A stretch of DNA of 14,053 nt, taken from the IMG/VR virus record IMGVR_UViG_2617270944_000005; one strand, written 5' to 3'. This DNA is from a virus. Taxonomy: Duplodnaviria; Heunggongvirae; Uroviricota; Caudoviricetes. A program made the position numbers and the translations under genes. This document shows, piece after piece, positions 1,532-14,053 of this stretch (position 1 is the first letter of the stretch; each line of letters begins with the position of its first letter). The notes beneath the pieces are model-generated. The model was given only the letters and a program-made list of their open reading frames with translations, ran no database searches and was not told the origin of the DNA.

Positions 1532-1741
1532 TTAATTTGAATACAATGCAATTCTCGAGGACTGAAGTTTCTCGCAATTAAAATTTATCAGTTTTACTTT
1601 CTGCTCTCTGGAAACGCCTGCTTCTTTTTTACCTGAGAGCATTTTTTCGCATTCTGATTTCGTTAGTTTAGATTTTGAATATCTTGTCCAGTTAGTAGGA
1701 GTGCCACCTTCCTTTTCAATAGTGGCGGTAATTTTATACAT
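1532..1741 (-). CDS. ydaC: Small prophage protein YdaC-like (DUF1187-type), 69 aa
   Basis: Start chosen at MYKITATIEKEGG, preceded by a GGAGGTG Shine-Dalgarno; ORF track shows a longer 93-aa version from 1813. Start overlaps the ralR stop by 8 nt. Confidence 0.75.
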   Translation of the reverse strand: MYKITATIEKEGGTPTNWTRYSKSKLTKSECEKMLSGKKEAGVSREQKVKLINFNCEKLQSSRIALYSN

Positions 1742-7743: not shown

Positions 7744-8163
7744 TTAAGAGGCTTTTTGTTTTTTCTTTCGTGCTAACTCTTCGTAAATTGCATTGTACTT
7801 CTGTTTTTTCTCTTCAAGAGTTTTTAAAAGTTCATCTGTCTCACTGTCAGGGAGCTCGTCCAGAAGGTCAATGATGATTTTTTGTCTTGGATTTAACTCC
7901 TGATAGAAACGTACCTGTCCACTTTCTTCTGTATCCTCTCCCAAAAGATAGGTTGGTGTTGTTCCTATTAGTGTTGCTAATTCCCTTAATTTCTCCCGGC
8001 GAGGAATTGTTTCGCCATTAAACCATTTGCTAACCGCTTTTGGTGTTAATTTCATTCGACGGGCAATTTCTGCCTGCCTTCCATGTTGTTCATAACCAGC
8101 GTTTTCACAGGCTAGCGCAAGCCTACTGGCGAACTCTTTACGCGCTTTATCTTCATGAACCAT
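7744..8163 (-). CDS. racR: Prophage repressor, XRE-family HTH (RacR-like, cI analogue), 139 aa
   Basis: HTH region QAEIARRMKLTPKAVSKWFNGETIPRREKLRELATLIG; divergent from the cro-like ydaS; no alternative standard start upstream in frame before a stop. Confidence 0.85.
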   Translation of the reverse strand: MVHEDKARKEFASRLALACENAGYEQHGRQAEIARRMKLTPKAVSKWFNGETIPRREKLRELATLIGTTPTYLLGEDTEESGQVRFYQELNPRQKIIIDLLDELPDSETDELLKTLEEKKQKYNAIYEELARKKKQKAS

Positions 8164-8183
8164 AAGTTCAATGATATTCGCTC

Positions 8184-8218
8184 TTGAATGTACTGTCAGT
8201 TCTGTTATAGCATGTACT
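8184..8218. promoter_or_regulatory. Candidate rightward operator/promoter (OR-like) in the racR-ydaS divergent intergenic region
   Basis: Two copies of the same AATGTACT / ATGTACT motif seen at the OL-like site (8187-8194 and 8212-8218, 24-25 bp apart), overlapping a plausible -35 TTGAAT (8184-8189) and -10 TATAGC (8207-8212) for ydaS. Confidence 0.45.
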
Positions 8219-8242
8219 CAAAGTTCACATTGTGAGGGTGAT

Positions 8243-8497
8243 ATGAACCAGAAAACACTTGAAGATGTAATCAAAACTGTTCGCGTTGCTGTTGTGGCCG
8301 ACGTTTGTGGTGTCAGCCAAAGAGCAATCTATAAATGGATGGATAACGGAAAATTGCCTCGCACAGAATATACCGGCGAAACAAATTACGCTGAAAAAAT
8401 CGCTCTTGCATCAAACGGATTATTTTCTGCCGATGCAATTTTAACTATTGGCAGGAATAAAACTACTACGAAAAAGCTGATGGGAGTTGATTCATGA
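8243..8497 (+). CDS. ydaS: Cro-like HTH protein YdaS, 84 aa
   Basis: MNQKTLEDVIKTVRVAVVADVCGVSQRAIYKWM (HTH); start chosen at the ATG preceded by GAGGGTG; the ORF track's 108-aa version starts at 8171 inside the operator region. Stop overlaps the ydaT start (ATGA). Confidence 0.8.
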   Translation: MNQKTLEDVIKTVRVAVVADVCGVSQRAIYKWMDNGKLPRTEYTGETNYAEKIALASNGLFSADAILTIGRNKTTTKKLMGVDS

Positions 8498-8919
8498 AAA
8501 TCAAGCATGAACACATCCGCATGGCGATGAATGCCTGGGCGCATCCGGACGGCGAAAAAGTACCGGCTGCGAAAATTACCAAAGCGTATTTCGAGCTGGG
8601 AATGACGTTCCCGGAACTGTATGACGACAGCCATCCGGAAGCCCTGGCTCGCAATACTCAGAAAATTTTCCGCTGGGTGGAGAAAGACACCCCTGATGCG
8701 GTTAAAAAAATTCAGGCGTTGTTACCAGCTATCGAAAAAGCAATGCCACCTCTGCTGGTGGCCCGAATGCGCAGTCATAGCTCAGCCTATTTTCGGGAAC
8801 TAGTGGAGACGCGGGAACGACTGGTGAGAGACGCTGATGATTTTGTCGCAGTGGCGATCGCTGGTTTCAACCAGATGAATCGTGGTGGCCCTGCAGGAAA
8901 TATTGTGGCTGTGCATTGA
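8494..8919 (+). CDS. ydaT: YdaT (CII-like regulator, also reported as toxic on overexpression), 141 aa
   Basis: MKIKHEHIRMAMNAWAHPDGEKVPAAKITKAYFELGMTF matches Rac YdaT as I recall it; GGAG 8 nt upstream; translationally coupled to ydaS. Confidence 0.9.
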   Translation: MKIKHEHIRMAMNAWAHPDGEKVPAAKITKAYFELGMTFPELYDDSHPEALARNTQKIFRWVEKDTPDAVKKIQALLPAIEKAMPPLLVARMRSHSSAYFRELVETRERLVRDADDFVAVAIAGFNQMNRGGPAGNIVAVH

Positions 8920-8990: not shown

Positions 8991-10061
8991 ATGGCTAACG
9001 CCTGGCTCAGATTATGGCATGACATGCCAAATGACCCTAAGTGGCGAACAATTGCCAGGGTGTCAGGGCAGCCAATTGCAACAGTGATGGCAGTGTATAT
9101 CCACCTCCTGGTGAGCGCGTCACGAAATGTCACGCGAGGTCACATTGAGGTCACGACAGAAGATTTGGCAAGTGCGCTCGACGTGACAGAAGAGGTAATT
9201 GATTCAATTTTGCAGACGATGCAGGGGCGGGTACTTGATGGTGATTTAATCACTGGATGGGAAAAACGCCAGGTGCTTAAAGAGGACAACGGCAATATTT
9301 CGCAAACCGCAAAATCTCCTGCAGAGCGCAAGAGGGCGCAGCGAGAGAGGGAAAGAAAGCGGGAACAAAATGGCGATTGTCACGGCGCGTCACGAAATGT
9401 CACGCATATGTCACGACGAGTCACGACAGATAAAGATACAGATAAAGATACAGATCAAGAAGATCAAAACACTATGGTCCATGGCGTAAAAAACGCCACG
9501 AACCAGGCAGGGGATGTTCAGACCGTCAATCTTGGTCAGCCAGCAGGCACGACACCGGAAGCCGATTCAGCGTATGCGCTGAAAGCCGATTCGGGCGCTG
9601 TGCAGCAGGTGATGACCGCAAGGCCGGAGCAATCACACCAACTGCAGCAGCCCGAAGCCGATTCCGCCATTCAGCGGGAAGCCGATCGGGTAGTCCCGGA
9701 AAACACCGGGCAGTCTGTGGGACGAGTGGATTATCCGGATGTGTTCGAACAGGTCTGGCGGGAGTACCCGTTGCGTGCTGGGGCAAACCCGAAGAAATCC
9801 GCTTTCAGTGCCTGGAAGGCCAGATTACGCGAGGGGGTGCCACCAGAGGCCATGCTGGATGGCGTGAGGCGTTACGCAAGATACTTGGCGGCTACCGGGA
9901 AAACGGGAACGGAATTTGTTCAGCGAGCGACGACGTTTTTTGGACCGGACCGGAATTTTGAGAACCCCTGGTTGCTCCCGGTAAGCGGCACGAACAACCA
10001 GCGTTGTGTGAATCATATTTCTGAACCGGATAACGAAATTCCGCCGGGCTTCAGGGGGTAA
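8991..10061 (+). CDS. Phage replication initiator-like protein (O-like / replisome-organiser-like), 357 aa, with intragenic iterons
   Basis: Position immediately after the cro/cII analogues; AAGAGG Shine-Dalgarno before the ATG at 8991 (the track's start at 8985 is a GTG two codons upstream); the gene contains two phased direct-repeat clusters, as lambda O contains ori-lambda; basic/acidic low-complexity linker; conserved-looking C-terminal domain (YPDVFEQVWREYPLRAGANPKKSAFSAWKARL). Family assignment is inferred, not searched. Confidence 0.7.
   Translation: MANAWLRLWHDMPNDPKWRTIARVSGQPIATVMAVYIHLLVSASRNVTRGHIEVTTEDLASALDVTEEVIDSILQTMQGRVLDGDLITGWEKRQVLKEDNGNISQTAKSPAERKRAQRERERKREQNGDCHGASRNVTHMSRRVTTDKDTDKDTDQEDQNTMVHGVKNATNQAGDVQTVNLGQPAGTTPEADSAYALKADSGAVQQVMTARPEQSHQLQQPEADSAIQREADRVVPENTGQSVGRVDYPDVFEQVWREYPLRAGANPKKSAFSAWKARLREGVPPEAMLDGVRRYARYLAATGKTGTEFVQRATTFFGPDRNFENPWLLPVSGTNNQRCVNHISEPDNEIPPGFRG
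9114..9154. repeat. Iteron-like cluster 1: four GTCAC(G/A) repeats at 10-11 bp spacing
   Basis: GTCACG at 9118, 9128, 9149 and GTCACA at 9138; includes the 21-bp unit GCGCGTCACGAAATGTCACGC (9114-9134), which recurs exactly at 9385-9405. Confidence 0.6.
9379..9452. repeat. Iteron-like cluster 2: five GTCACG repeats at 10-11 bp spacing, followed by a tandem 12-bp GATAAAGATACA x2
   Basis: GTCACG at 9379, 9389, 9399, 9410, 9420; tandem GATAAAGATACA at 9429-9440 and 9441-9452 (encodes DKDTDKDTD); together with cluster 1 a candidate replication origin. Confidence 0.6.
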
Positions 10062-10101
10062 GTGTTAATTTCTGGTCATGAGGTAATTTTCAGGAGGGCT
10101 T

Positions 10102-10524
10102 GTGGCAAAAGTTTTTACACAAGAAGAGCGGGAAAAAATTAAAGGGCAGGTTCTTGAACTCGTACGCCAGAGTGGGCGCGAGACGTTACGACAACTGGAA
10201 GCTAAAACTGGGGCAACAAGATATCTGATGAGCGTTCTGGCCAGAGAGCTGGTTGCCAGTGGCGATGTATACAATTCTGGCTACGGGTTATTCCCGTCTG
10301 AACAGGCTCGTAAAGACTGGCAAAATGCCCGCAAAAAATTATCGAGGGCAAAGCTGAAGAAACCGGTTGTGGTTGATCCGGACCTTATCTGGTCATTACC
10401 TGACGGAGAAATACGTCGCTACGACAGTCGCCTAAACATAATCTGTCGCGAGTGCCGGAAGAGCGAAGTTATGCAGCGCATATTGTCGTTTTATCAGGGG
10501 GATGTTCGGTATTTATTGAAGTGA
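10102..10524 (+). CDS. Hypothetical protein, 140 aa, in the position of a phage helicase-loader (lambda P analogue) but with no recognisable ATPase motif
   Basis: GTG start with a strong AGGAGG Shine-Dalgarno 4 nt upstream; no Walker A motif; lysine/arginine-rich segment (ARKKLSRAKLKK); one CxxC (CRECRK). Function not recognised. Confidence 0.65.
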   Translation: MAKVFTQEEREKIKGQVLELVRQSGRETLRQLEAKTGATRYLMSVLARELVASGDVYNSGYGLFPSEQARKDWQNARKKLSRAKLKKPVVVDPDLIWSLPDGEIRRYDSRLNIICRECRKSEVMQRILSFYQGDVRYLLK

Positions 10525-10858: not shown

Positions 10859-13033
10859 ATGATTATGAGTGAAAATGATACAACCCCAAAGAAGTCTACA
10901 AGCCAGATTAACAAAGCGGTATTCTTTACATCTGCTTTGCTAATTTTCCTTCTTGTCGCCTTTGCCGCCGTATTCCCGGATGTCGCCGACAAAAATTTTA
11001 AACTACTTCAGCAACAAATCTTCACGAATGCCAGCTGGTTCTACATACTTGCTGTGGCCCTGATTTTACTGAGCGTCACGTTCCTTGGACTCTCACGTTA
11101 CGGTGATATAAAGCTGGGCCCAGACCATGCGCAGCCTGATTTCAGCTACCACTCCTGGTTCGCGATGCTTTTTTCGGCAGGGATGGGGATCGGCCTGATG
11201 TTCTTTGGCGTTGCCGAACCTGTGATGCATTATCTTTCGCCACCTGTCGGCACTCCAGAGACCGTTGCGGCAGCGAAGGAAGCCATGCGCCTGACGTTCT
11301 TCCACTGGGGTCTGCACGCATGGGCAATTTATGCCATCGTGGCGCTGATTCTGGCCTTTTTCAGTTACCGTCACGGTCTGCCTTTAACGCTGCGTTCTGC
11401 GCTCTATCCCATTATCGGCGATCGCATTTACGGGCCTATAGGCCACGCGGTTGATATCTTCGCCGTGATAGGCACTGTCTTTGGCGTTGCAACATCGCTG
11501 GGTTACGGTGTATTGCAGGTGAATGCCGGTTTGAACCATCTTTTCGGCGTGCCCATCAATGAAACGGTACAGGTCATTTTGATCGTGGTCATCACGGGGT
11601 TAGCGACGATTTCGGTGGTGTCCGGCCTGGACAAGGGAATACGCATCCTGTCTGAGCTTAATCTGGGCCTGGCGGTGTTGCTCCTGGCGCTGGTCTTGTG
11701 CCTGGGTCCCACTGTGCTTCTGCTGAAGTCATTTGTGGAAAATACGGGTGGTTATCTGTCGGAACTGGTGAGTAAAACGTTCAACCTTTACGCGTATGAA
11801 CCCAAGTCGAGCAACTGGCTGGGGGGCTGGACATTATTATACTGGGGATGGTGGCTTTCATGGTCGCCGTTTGTAGGTATGTTCATTGCACGCGTTTCCC
11901 GCGGCAGGACAATTCGTGAGTTCGTGACTGGCGTGTTGTTTGTTCCCGCCGGCTTTACGCTCATGTGGATGACGGTGTTTGGAAACAGCGCCATCTATCT
12001 CATCATGAACCAGGGCGCCACTGACCTCGCCAATACCGTTCAGCAGGATGTTGCGCTTGCCCTGTTTAATTTCCTGGAGCATTTCCCGTTCTCTTCCGTG
12101 CTGTCATTCATTGCAATGGCGATGGTCATCGTCTTCTTTGTAACGTCTGCTGATTCGGGGGCAATGGTTGTGGATACTCTGGCATCAGGTGGGGTGGCAA
12201 ACACGCCCGTCTGGCAGCGAATTTTCTGGGCATCGCTCATGGGCGTTGTTGCTATTGCCCTGCTGATCGCAGGGGGGCTGAGTGCGTTGCAAACCGTAAC
12301 GATAGCGAGTGCATTGCCCTTCTCAGTTATCTTATTAATATCCATATACGGACTGTTAAAAGCCCTGCGTCGGGATTTGACCAAGCGTGAAAGCCTTAGC
12401 ATGGCGACTATTGCTCCTACGGCTGCACGTAACCCAATTCCCTGGCAGAGAAGGTTACGCAATATCGCGTATTTGCCGAAGCGCTCTCTTGTGAAACGTT
12501 TTATGGACGACATTATCCAACCCGCCATGACGCTGGTTCAGGAGGAACTTAACAAGCAGGGAACGATAAGCCACATCAGTGACGCCGCCGAGGATCGTAT
12601 TCGCCTTGAAGTCGATTTGGGCAACGAGCTGAATTATATATATGAAGTGAGGCTTCGCGGGTATAACTCACCGACCTTCGCGCTCGCTGCGCTGGATAAT
12701 GATGAGCAGCAGAGTGAACAACATCGATATTATCGCGCTGAAGTCTATCTCAAAGAGGGCGGCCAAAATTATGATGTAATGGGCTGGAATCAGGAACTGA
12801 ACCGCCCCGGGTTTCCTGGAGAGTGTTTTATCTGTGAACTCAGGCTGCCAGATCATCGTTTCCGATGGAAGCATAATAAGCTTTTTCTGCTTCTGCCGGA
12901 GGAGTATGGCCCAGCCTTCCCAGCAATCGTCGATTGTTATACCAGTCCACCCACGTTAGTGTGGCCAGTTCCACTTCTGCACGGTTTTTCCAGCTCTTAC
13001 GGTGTATTACCTCCGCTTTGTAAAGACCATTGA
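10859..13033 (+). CDS. BCCT-family transporter, BetT-like (choline/osmoprotectant), 3' end interrupted by IS insertion; about 646 native residues followed by an IS-derived out-of-context tail
   Basis: BCCT signature GWTLLYWGWWLSWSPFVGMFIARVSRGRTIREF; collinear similarity to E. coli BetT along its length, including the cytoplasmic C-terminal domain, up to ...YDVMGWNQEL, where the IS terminal repeat begins (12798); roughly 30 residues of the expected C-terminus are missing. An alternative start is the ATG at 10865. Confidence 0.8.
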   Translation: MIMSENDTTPKKSTSQINKAVFFTSALLIFLLVAFAAVFPDVADKNFKLLQQQIFTNASWFYILAVALILLSVTFLGLSRYGDIKLGPDHAQPDFSYHSWFAMLFSAGMGIGLMFFGVAEPVMHYLSPPVGTPETVAAAKEAMRLTFFHWGLHAWAIYAIVALILAFFSYRHGLPLTLRSALYPIIGDRIYGPIGHAVDIFAVIGTVFGVATSLGYGVLQVNAGLNHLFGVPINETVQVILIVVITGLATISVVSGLDKGIRILSELNLGLAVLLLALVLCLGPTVLLLKSFVENTGGYLSELVSKTFNLYAYEPKSSNWLGGWTLLYWGWWLSWSPFVGMFIARVSRGRTIREFVTGVLFVPAGFTLMWMTVFGNSAIYLIMNQGATDLANTVQQDVALALFNFLEHFPFSSVLSFIAMAMVIVFFVTSADSGAMVVDTLASGGVANTPVWQRIFWASLMGVVAIALLIAGGLSALQTVTIASALPFSVILLISIYGLLKALRRDLTKRESLSMATIAPTAARNPIPWQRRLRNIAYLPKRSLVKRFMDDIIQPAMTLVQEELNKQGTISHISDAAEDRIRLEVDLGNELNYIYEVRLRGYNSPTFALAALDNDEQQSEQHRYYRAEVYLKEGGQNYDVMGWNQELNRPGFPGECFICELRLPDHRFRWKHNKLFLLLPEEYGPAFPAIVDCYTSPPTLVWPVPLLHGFSSSYGVLPPLCKDH

Positions 13034-13730
13034 TGCTCTCAGCCATCGCGTTGTCATACGAGTCGCCTGTACTCCCTGTTGATGCCAGTAATCCGGCTTC
13101 TTTTAGTCGCTCCGTATAGGCCAGTGACACATACTGAGAGCCTTTATCGCTGTGATGGATGGTGCCAGACGGACGACGGGCCCACAACGCCTGCTCCAGC
13201 GCATCCAGCACGAATGTCGTTTCCATAGACGATGAGACCCGCCACCCCACGATGTATCCGGCAAACACATCAATGATAAACGCCACATAGACGAAGCCCT
13301 GCCATGTGCTGACGTAAGTAAAATCAGCCACCCACAGCTGGTCAGGTCGTTCTGCCACGAACTGACGGTTTACGCGGTCGCCTGCGGCAACGGCTTTCCG
13401 GCTGATGGTCGTACGGACCTTTTTACCCCGGAGAACACCGGCAAGTCCCATAACCGCCATGAGACGTGCCACTGTACATCTGGCCACCCTGATTCCTTCC
13501 CGTAACAACTGACGCCAGACTTTACGCACACCGTACACCTGATGATTTTCATCGTATACGCGCTGTATCTCTCTCTTCAGCCAGTCGTCGTGCTGCGCAC
13601 GGGCACTGCGTTTATCCGGATGATGTCGCTGTTGCTGACAATGGTAATACGTTGACGGGGCAATATGCAGTTCGCTGCATACCGGTCCGACCCCGTACTG
13701 CTCACGCAGCTTATCCAGCAGTGGCATCAT
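12840..13730 (-). CDS. IS3-family transposase OrfB (DDE integrase-like catalytic domain), 296 aa
   Basis: DDE transposase hallmarks (WVADFTYV ... HSDKGSQY ... [15 protein letters not shown]); in the -1 frame relative to orfA, overlapping it by 4 nt. Confidence 0.9.
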
Positions 13731-14053
13731 TTTTTCCAGAGGCGGTCGAACTCCGCCTTCGCAAAATAAGCGGAAGCCTGGCGAAGGATATCGTTACTGC
13801 GGCGCAGTTCACGATTTTCACGTTCCAGCTCTTTCAGACGCTGACGTTCCGCGCTGGTGAGCCCACCATCACCGCCCCCGGTATCCCGCTCATGCTGGCG
13901 AACCCAGACACGCAGAGTCTCCGGCGTACAGCCAATCTTTGGGGCAATGGAACAAATTGCCGCCCACTGTGAGTCATATTCATCCTGACTTTCCAGAACC
14001 ATACGAATCGCCCGCTGACGGACTTCGGGGGAAAAACGAGTATTTTTAGTCAT
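13727..14053 (-). CDS. IS3-family transposase OrfA (HTH plus leucine-zipper region), 108 aa
   Basis: [30 protein letters not shown]... with a heptad-like [20 protein letters not shown] segment; ends in an A6 run directly before its stop, at the orfB overlap. Confidence 0.9.

Follow-up and report, generated by a model that had tools for sequence, protein, structure and literature searches.

A candidate replication origin of phased GTCACG repeats within the initiator gene of a Rac-type Escherichia coli prophage

The replication locus and its repeats

The window, a 14,053-nucleotide stretch of Caudoviricetes DNA (IMG/VR record IMGVR_UViG_2617270944_000005), is a prophage of the Rac type, located at ttcA in E. 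coli. Its replication initiator gene holds two arrays of the hexamer GTCACG and an AT-rich segment, which together form a candidate origin of replication. From left to right the window contains intR, xisR, ralR, recT, recE, racC, kilR and sieB, followed by immunity and replication genes (Table 1). The initiator gene lies after the repressor, cro-like and YdaT/cII-like genes and before the Ren-like DUF977 gene; this is the position of a lambdoid O gene, where a sequence-only reading of the window had placed the repeats. The origin is not annotated in the RefSeq and phage records inspected.

Table 1. Features of the replication region, with positions in the window
Feature	Position	Strand	Comment
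Repressor	7744-8163	-	Immunity region
cro-like helix-turn-helix gene	8171-8497	+
YdaT/cII-like gene	8494-8919	+
Initiator (replisome organizer) gene, 356 amino acids	8991-10061	+	Open reading frame, RefSeq coding sequence and PHROG 3729; holds the entire candidate origin
N-terminal domain coding region (residues 1-126)	8991-9368	+	Helical, weakly winged-helix-like; presumed iteron-binding domain
Array 1	9119-9155	+	37-bp block; four direct GTCAC(G/A) units at 9119, 9129, 9139 (GTCACA) and 9150
Inverted GTCACG copy	9182-9187	-	Codons D64-V65-T66; 32 bp downstream of array 1
Array 2	9379-9425	+	47-bp block, linker-coding; five direct GTCACG units at 9379, 9389, 9399, 9410 and 9420
AT-rich, A-skewed segment	9426-9474	.	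Candidate DNA-unwinding element; ACAGATAAAGAT tandem; GATC sites at 9453-9456 and 9462-9465
Imperfect inverted repeat	9475-9505	.	TGGTCCATGGCGT-AAAAA-ACGCCACGAACCA; 13-pair stem, A5 loop; right flank of AT-rich segment
C-terminal helical domain coding region (residues ~245-356)	9723-10058	+	Predicted confidence ~90 for residues 250-330
DUF977/Ren-like gene	10102-10524	+

The open reading frame of the initiator agrees with the RefSeq call and encodes 356 amino acids, not the 357 previously given. The protein matches PHROG 3729 ('replication initiation protein') over its full length (E 2.1e-257; residues 1-356 on profile positions 1-356), and its name at NCBI is 'phage replisome organizer'. It matches no Pfam family at E<=0.01, hence not the lambda O family Phage_rep_O. 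Similarity to TIGR01714 (phage replisome organizer, N-terminal region) is below threshold, at 14 bits against a cut-off of 49.8.

Among 5426 complete E. coli genomes, 1542 contain no less than 80% of the 1.7-kb module in which this gene lies; the identical stretch occurs in many strains. It is also found in phages Tritos and Evi and in several induced prophages. The Tritos module is 97% identical, and the initiator is the sole annotated replication gene of this phage. Tritos was isolated as a plaque on MG1655 (PMC9928086).

The units of array 1 are spaced by 10, 10 and 11 bp and those of array 2 by 10, 10, 11 and 10 bp; the cores therefore lie on one face of the helix. Because of this spacing the units are translated in three frames, as SR, VT, GH and VT in array 1 and as SR, VT and GH/CH across the two arrays. 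Array 1 lies about 260 bp upstream of array 2, inside the coding sequence of the DNA-binding domain. A perfect 21-bp direct repeat, GCGCGTCACGAAATGTCACGC, occurs at 9115-9135 and 9385-9405; it is in one frame in both arrays and encodes ASRNVT. The sequence-only reading described nine GTCAC(G/A) copies in two clusters together with this 21-bp repeat. Copies and spacing hold, and the second cluster and second 21-bp copy were placed exactly; its positions for the first cluster and the first 21-bp copy are one base too low, and it overlooked the inverted copy. Both clusters are real, but they are not equivalent, as an AT-rich segment adjoins array 2 and none adjoins array 1.

All nine plus-strand GTCAC(G/A) copies in the open reading frame fall within the two array blocks. 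When the frame is shuffled among synonymous codons, the mean is 2.3 copies and the maximum is seven; none of 5000 shuffles reaches the nine observed. The count across the window is unremarkable: 18 copies on both strands compared with 12.4 expected, a number reached by 16 of 200 shuffles. The clustering and phasing of the repeats are thus far beyond chance; it is the clustering that is exceptional, not the count.

The segment that follows array 2 has a GC content of 0.30 and an AT skew of +0.6, and is the GC minimum of the initiator gene. The 12-bp tandem repeat that had been noticed here is confirmed as ACAGATAAAGAT at 9426-9460, in 2.9 copies by Tandem Repeats Finder. Neither oriC 13-mers nor DnaA-trios were retained for this segment; by eye, only 7-8 of the 11 specified positions fit the consensus of the 13-mers, and the segment shows no pattern of trios. 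The inverted repeat on its right flank, translated as NTMVHGVKNAT, shows DNA-level conservation in L066-L068, three homologues with 47-58% protein identity and the same C-terminal domain. The peptide is also found in P0047, a protein with a different N-domain. It is uncertain whether the inverted repeat is a right arm of the origin, a recombination joint or a conserved peptide motif (NTMVHG). An internal promoter or terminator role was rejected: scan sites are no more numerous than in shuffles, and the single terminator-like match is this inverted repeat, on the minus strand.

E. coli alleles of the gene (alignment A1: P0003, P0022, P0057, P0103 and P0019) vary in both arrays through the insertion of complete iteron units; one example is TCHGVSR, which corresponds to 21 nt in array 1. 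P0019 does not contain the 3' part of array 2 or the AT-rich segment, and may represent an inactivated origin.

Conservation of the arrays in related elements

Relatives were sought by tblastn with the N-terminal 160 amino acids of the initiator as query. N-domains of about 70% identity are found in Aeromonas phage pAEv1818 and in the D3-like phages of Pseudomonas; the C-terminal domains and downstream genes of these phages are unrelated to those of the window. They carry four GTCAC units at the same codons and three or four more about 260 bp downstream, followed by an AT-rich stretch. A scan of one genome per species gives 58 loci, which come from gamma-, beta- and alpha-proteobacteria and from a few other metagenome-assembled genomes. 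All homologues of about 65% identity or above keep GTCAC at +129, +139, +149 and +160 (host GC 34-69%), and all carry three to five further copies near +370 to +430. Array 2 therefore persists, although it lies in a linker of otherwise non-conserved peptide sequence. The inverted copy appears as GTGAC at +193 in most members of the clade, and the codon for V65 is GTG wherever the valine is kept (19 of 22 genes).

Codon choice was compared across 22 non-redundant homologous genes with a median nucleotide identity of 69% and a host GC content of 34-69%. Codons that overlap the cores have a normalised entropy of 0.015, compared with 0.81 for 42 other codons with conserved amino acids (Mann-Whitney p=1.4e-5). 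TCA is used in 95% of cases, and GTC, ACG, GGT, CAC, GTC and ACG each in 100%; this freezing holds even in hosts of 58-69% GC. The hexamers are almost certainly under selection at the DNA level and not a by-product of coding. Conservation at synonymous sites, which the sequence-only reading had put forward as a check, is therefore strongly in evidence.

The AT-rich segment follows array 2 throughout the family. Over 51 loci, the mean GC content is 0.32 in the 40 nt that follow array 2, compared with 0.55 for the locus. In 43 of these loci the GC minimum, taken as the lowest-GC 40-nt window within the first 800 nt of the gene, begins between -10 and +30 nt from where array 2 ends. An AT-rich motif, (A/C)(C/T)AGATAAAGATAAAGA, recurs after array 2 and is present even at a host GC content of 69%.

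Distant homologues that do not have GTCACG carry another hexamer at both array places, and the motif is identical in the two arrays of each genome. GTAACG is found in Pantoea, Enterobacter and others, CGAACG in many beta- and alpha-proteobacteria, GCAACG in Ralstonia phage Firinga, and GAAACG at one locus. A blind array score, which requires the best 5-mer at least twice in each array and at least six copies in total, is positive for 51 of 61 loci; of the controls, 7 of 115 regions score positive, as do 26 of 1220 shuffles of the codons. Unit spacing across the family is 10 bp in 94 cases and 11 bp in 28 cases. L041 and L042 have array 2 only. In two homologues without recognisable arrays, L049 (a Serratia metagenome-assembled genome) and L060 (Pantoea), the N-domain is joined to another type of C-terminal part (YVYxV...GxSxNPWxR); the domain therefore serves in a further architecture as well.

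Units of the GTAACG type do not occupy the frame in which they would read as the stop codon TAA. In L066 this is seen as alternating spacings of 10 and 11 bp (1652-1673 and 1924-1955); in cluster 2 of L036, GAAACG replaces the one unit that would read as TAA. DNA and coding constraints thus act on the same bases.

The initiator and helicase recruitment

The AlphaFold2 model of the initiator has a helical N-domain (residues 2-77; predicted local distance difference test, pLDDT, 68-87, with a dip at the segment that array 1 encodes) and a basic helix at residues 110-126. Residues 128-243 form a disordered linker with pLDDT below 50. Array 2 and the AT-rich stretch are encoded in this linker, and thus lie between the DNA-binding and recruiting domains of the protein. 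A Foldseek comparison with the PDB gives only matches with E above 4, and the N-domain profile has only chance matches among PDB sequences.

The hexamers are very likely the sites for the N-domain of the protein that their own gene encodes, as the company of this domain and of the arrays suggests. The repressor, cro-like, YdaT and DUF977 proteins and the C-terminal domain found in the window each recur in 1-5 of 62 loci; the N-domain alone is constant. Downstream partners vary, and may be a 246-residue protein annotated 'replicative helicase', a primase-helicase-like protein, DnaB, a DnaC-like protein, or none.

The clades with GTCACG and CGAACG can be compared for residues that follow the hexamer. 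Within the folded N-domain (residues 5-95) the only discriminating positions are 45, 47, 51, 52, 55 and 65, and all of these are encoded by array 1 and the inverted copy. It is conceivable, if rather doubtful, that the surface by which the binding domain sets its specificity is encoded in part by the very iterons of array 1 to which that domain binds. In that case a base change in an iteron would also alter the recognition peptide and so couple the specificities of origin and initiator, and new incompatibility types could arise in few steps. The remaining discriminating positions lie in residues 101-117 and comprise a nine-residue indel and K114/Q117 in the basic helix; this region is the more conventional candidate for specificity.

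The C-terminal domain is the presumed recruiter of the host helicase-loading machinery. Its last 24 residues, GTNNQRCVNHISEPDNEIPPGFRG (9987-10058), align with the very end of the C-terminal tail in E. coli DnaT, with 16 of 24 identical (E 0.0027), and the motif is kept in relatives of 45-58% identity. The alignment is limited to these residues; the full-length DnaT equivalog NF002770 scores 19.2 bits against a cut-off of 201. The tail may mimic DnaT and so exploit the helicase-loading machinery of the host. A 2026 preprimosome paper states no function for the C-terminal tail of DnaT, and for this reason the role of the tail here remains an inference.

In relatives that share this C-terminal domain, an IstB/DnaC-like loader gene lies directly downstream (L066 2487-3236, L067 2472-3197 and L068 2451-3194). 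In the window, Tritos and Evi the DUF977 gene directly follows the initiator gene (in the window after a gap at 10062-10101), and no loader gene lies between. The whole Tritos genome contains no annotated helicase, loader or primase, yet this phage formed a plaque; it therefore seems that the module needs nothing beyond factors of the host. A testable route of host helicase recruitment is suggested by the DnaT-like tail together with the missing loader gene.

The candidate origin and its counterparts

Array 2 together with the AT-rich segment is likely to be the core of the prophage replication origin, and array 1 is proposed as an auxiliary initiator-binding array. Several initiator protomers would occupy the 6-bp cores in head-to-tail order, all on one face of the helix. 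The resulting nucleoprotein complex, aided by read-through from the early rightward promoter, would melt the AT-rich segment, and the C-terminal domain with its DnaT-like tail would bring in the DnaB-DnaC helicase and loader of the host, as this allele has no loader gene. Array 1 and the inverted copy might assist looping or cooperative loading, or serve in autoregulation. Of these steps, the binding and melting of DNA and the recruitment of the helicase are inferred, as is what array 1 does.

Several observations weigh against this reading. The distance between the arrays varies from about 240 to 350 bp across homologues and has no common helical remainder; a fixed helical register between them was accordingly rejected, and a fixed looped geometry has no support. 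About 10 of 61 homologues have no recognisable arrays, so the N-domain can exist without them. Downstream of the replication genes, the late genes are replaced by a transporter gene and an IS3 element; the prophage is a truncated remnant, and for this reason the copy in the window may never fire.

The arrays could also bind the initiator mainly for control, through autorepression or a roadblock, through handcuffing or copy control, or by titrating the initiator of an incoming phage and so interfering with superinfection, while the origin lies elsewhere. Array 1 fits this account in having no AT-rich neighbour and in lying within the coding region of a folded domain, and two separate arrays resemble the control iterons of plasmids. 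According to one study, ectopic copies of the lambda origin can arrest the cognate phage (PMC4488673). The GC minimum of the gene, however, consistently adjoins array 2, an arrangement seen in bona fide origins; no other combination of repeats and an AT-rich stretch was seen in the window, and Tritos has no other annotated replication gene in its genome. Control in place of an origin is thus unlikely. It is plausible for array 1 only, and there it is compatible with an origin at array 2.

Two further accounts deny the initiator or the DNA a role. As regulator genes flank the initiator gene, the repeats might be sites for a neighbouring phage regulator (YdaT/cII-like or DUF977) or for a host factor. 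The neighbouring genes are rare among the 62 loci that keep arrays, and related elements of the Enterobacterales carry either GTCACG or GTAACG, which argues against a neighbouring regulator and against a universal host factor; this account is very improbable. The repeats might instead have no function in DNA and derive from repeats in the protein or from recent slippage or duplication. The shared frame of the 21-bp repeat and the whole-unit insertions that distinguish E. coli alleles are in its favour. It is contradicted by synonymous positions that are invariant across 22 diverged genes, by units read in three frames, by positions conserved from 34% to 69% host GC, and by the different hexamer that distant clades have in both arrays; we regard it as barely credible.

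The design resembles that of phage lambda, whose ori consists of phased initiator sites in O followed by a 40-bp A+T-rich region and is activated by PR transcription (PMC5043065). In both systems the origin lies in the initiator gene, between the N-terminal DNA-binding and C-terminal recruiting parts. Both have a phased array of four to five initiator sites, followed by about 40-50 bp of A+T-rich DNA (PMC5043065; PMC6022878). In both, a disordered linker separates two folded domains of the initiator, and the arrays and AT-rich stretch are in or near it. The map position is also the same: cro and cII-like genes precede the initiator gene, and a Ren-like gene follows it. In contrast to lambda O, the protein of the window has no sequence match to O, and its sites are 6-bp direct cores every 10-11 bp; lambda has 19-bp near-palindromes of dyad symmetry that are bound by dimers. 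The window has a second array within the coding region of the DNA-binding domain, and a DnaT-like C-terminal tail instead of a P-type loader gene. The proposal that this is an analogous but sequence-distinct counterpart of the lambda origin is supported by synonymous conservation, hexamer switching, the position of the AT-rich segment and linkage to the N-domain.

In SPP1, G38P (gp38) binds direct repeats in gene 38 beside an AT-rich DNA-unwinding element (oriL), and also a distant oriR (PMC6316719). As at oriL, the repeats of the window are inside the initiator gene and adjoin an AT-rich element, and there is a second repeat region; the NCBI and PHROG annotators place the protein under 'replisome organizer'. 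Unlike SPP1, the family has proteobacterial hosts and both arrays are in one gene, about 260 bp apart. This allele has no dedicated helicase or loader gene, and the similarity to TIGR01714 remains below threshold. The replisome organizers of lactococcal phages are a further close counterpart.

Helically phased direct repeats with winged-helix initiator monomers and an adjacent DNA-unwinding element are also known from iteron plasmids (pPS10 RepA, R6K pi and RK2 TrfA) and from P4 ori/crr. These systems have extra arrays for control or enhancement; the iterons of the plasmids are 17-22 bp long and intergenic. In contrast, the cores of the window are 6 bp long and lie inside a coding sequence, where the reading frame places a further constraint on them.

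K-12 Rac belongs to the same prophage family and shares the site (ttcA; intR, recET, kilR and sieB) and the position of the gene; it has a known active origin, oriJ (PMC3945230). Its replication module is different. The N-domain of ydaU is DUF1376, a DnaC-like gene, ydaV, is present, and the repeats are TGTTCAAACA. GTCACG occurs three times in 8 kb, never within ydaU, and forms no arrays. In ydaU (L065 5005-5135; NC_000913.3 ~1421504-1421634), direct and inverted TGTTCAAACA repeats lie mid-gene and are followed by AATAAAGATACAGATAAAGATCTAAAAACAGATC; this AT-rich element, of the GATAAAGATACAGATAAAGATC type, is common to the window and is the sole shared part. Since Rac, with the ydaU repeats and this element, has an active origin, the reading of the GATAAAGATACAGATAAAGATC element as part of an origin has independent support. 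The TGTTCAAACA repeats and the AT-rich element are probably the sequence basis of oriJ. The module of the window is an allelic replacement of the K-12 Rac module and not oriJ; the term 'Rac-type origin' does not apply, because K-12 Rac has the non-homologous ydaU/ydaV module.

The lambda-like design is known and will not surprise a specialist in phage replication; as far as we have found, the two-array architecture of the family and its specificity series seem undescribed. The literature searched for longer repeat strings, and for iterons together with replisome organizers, gave nothing specific. The module is widespread in E. coli and has relatives across gamma-, beta- and alpha-proteobacteria, which gives it value for annotating prophage origins. 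A known origin can be used to predict incompatibility or interference between co-resident prophages, to build initiator-dependent vectors and to interpret amplification of prophages in situ. The variants GTCACG, GTAACG, CGAACG and GCAACG on a conserved domain provide a natural series for the study of recognition.

Three other features were seen elsewhere in the window. The gene for a transporter of the BCCT family (betaine/carnitine/choline) at 10859-13033 stands at the expected start of the late region, and is either cargo or a junction left by the truncation. The RalA antitoxin small RNA lies at 1557-1735 (+), opposite ralR. An ALIL pseudoknot, the frameshift signal of the IS3 family, is located at 13656-13772 (-) in the insertion sequence element at the right end.

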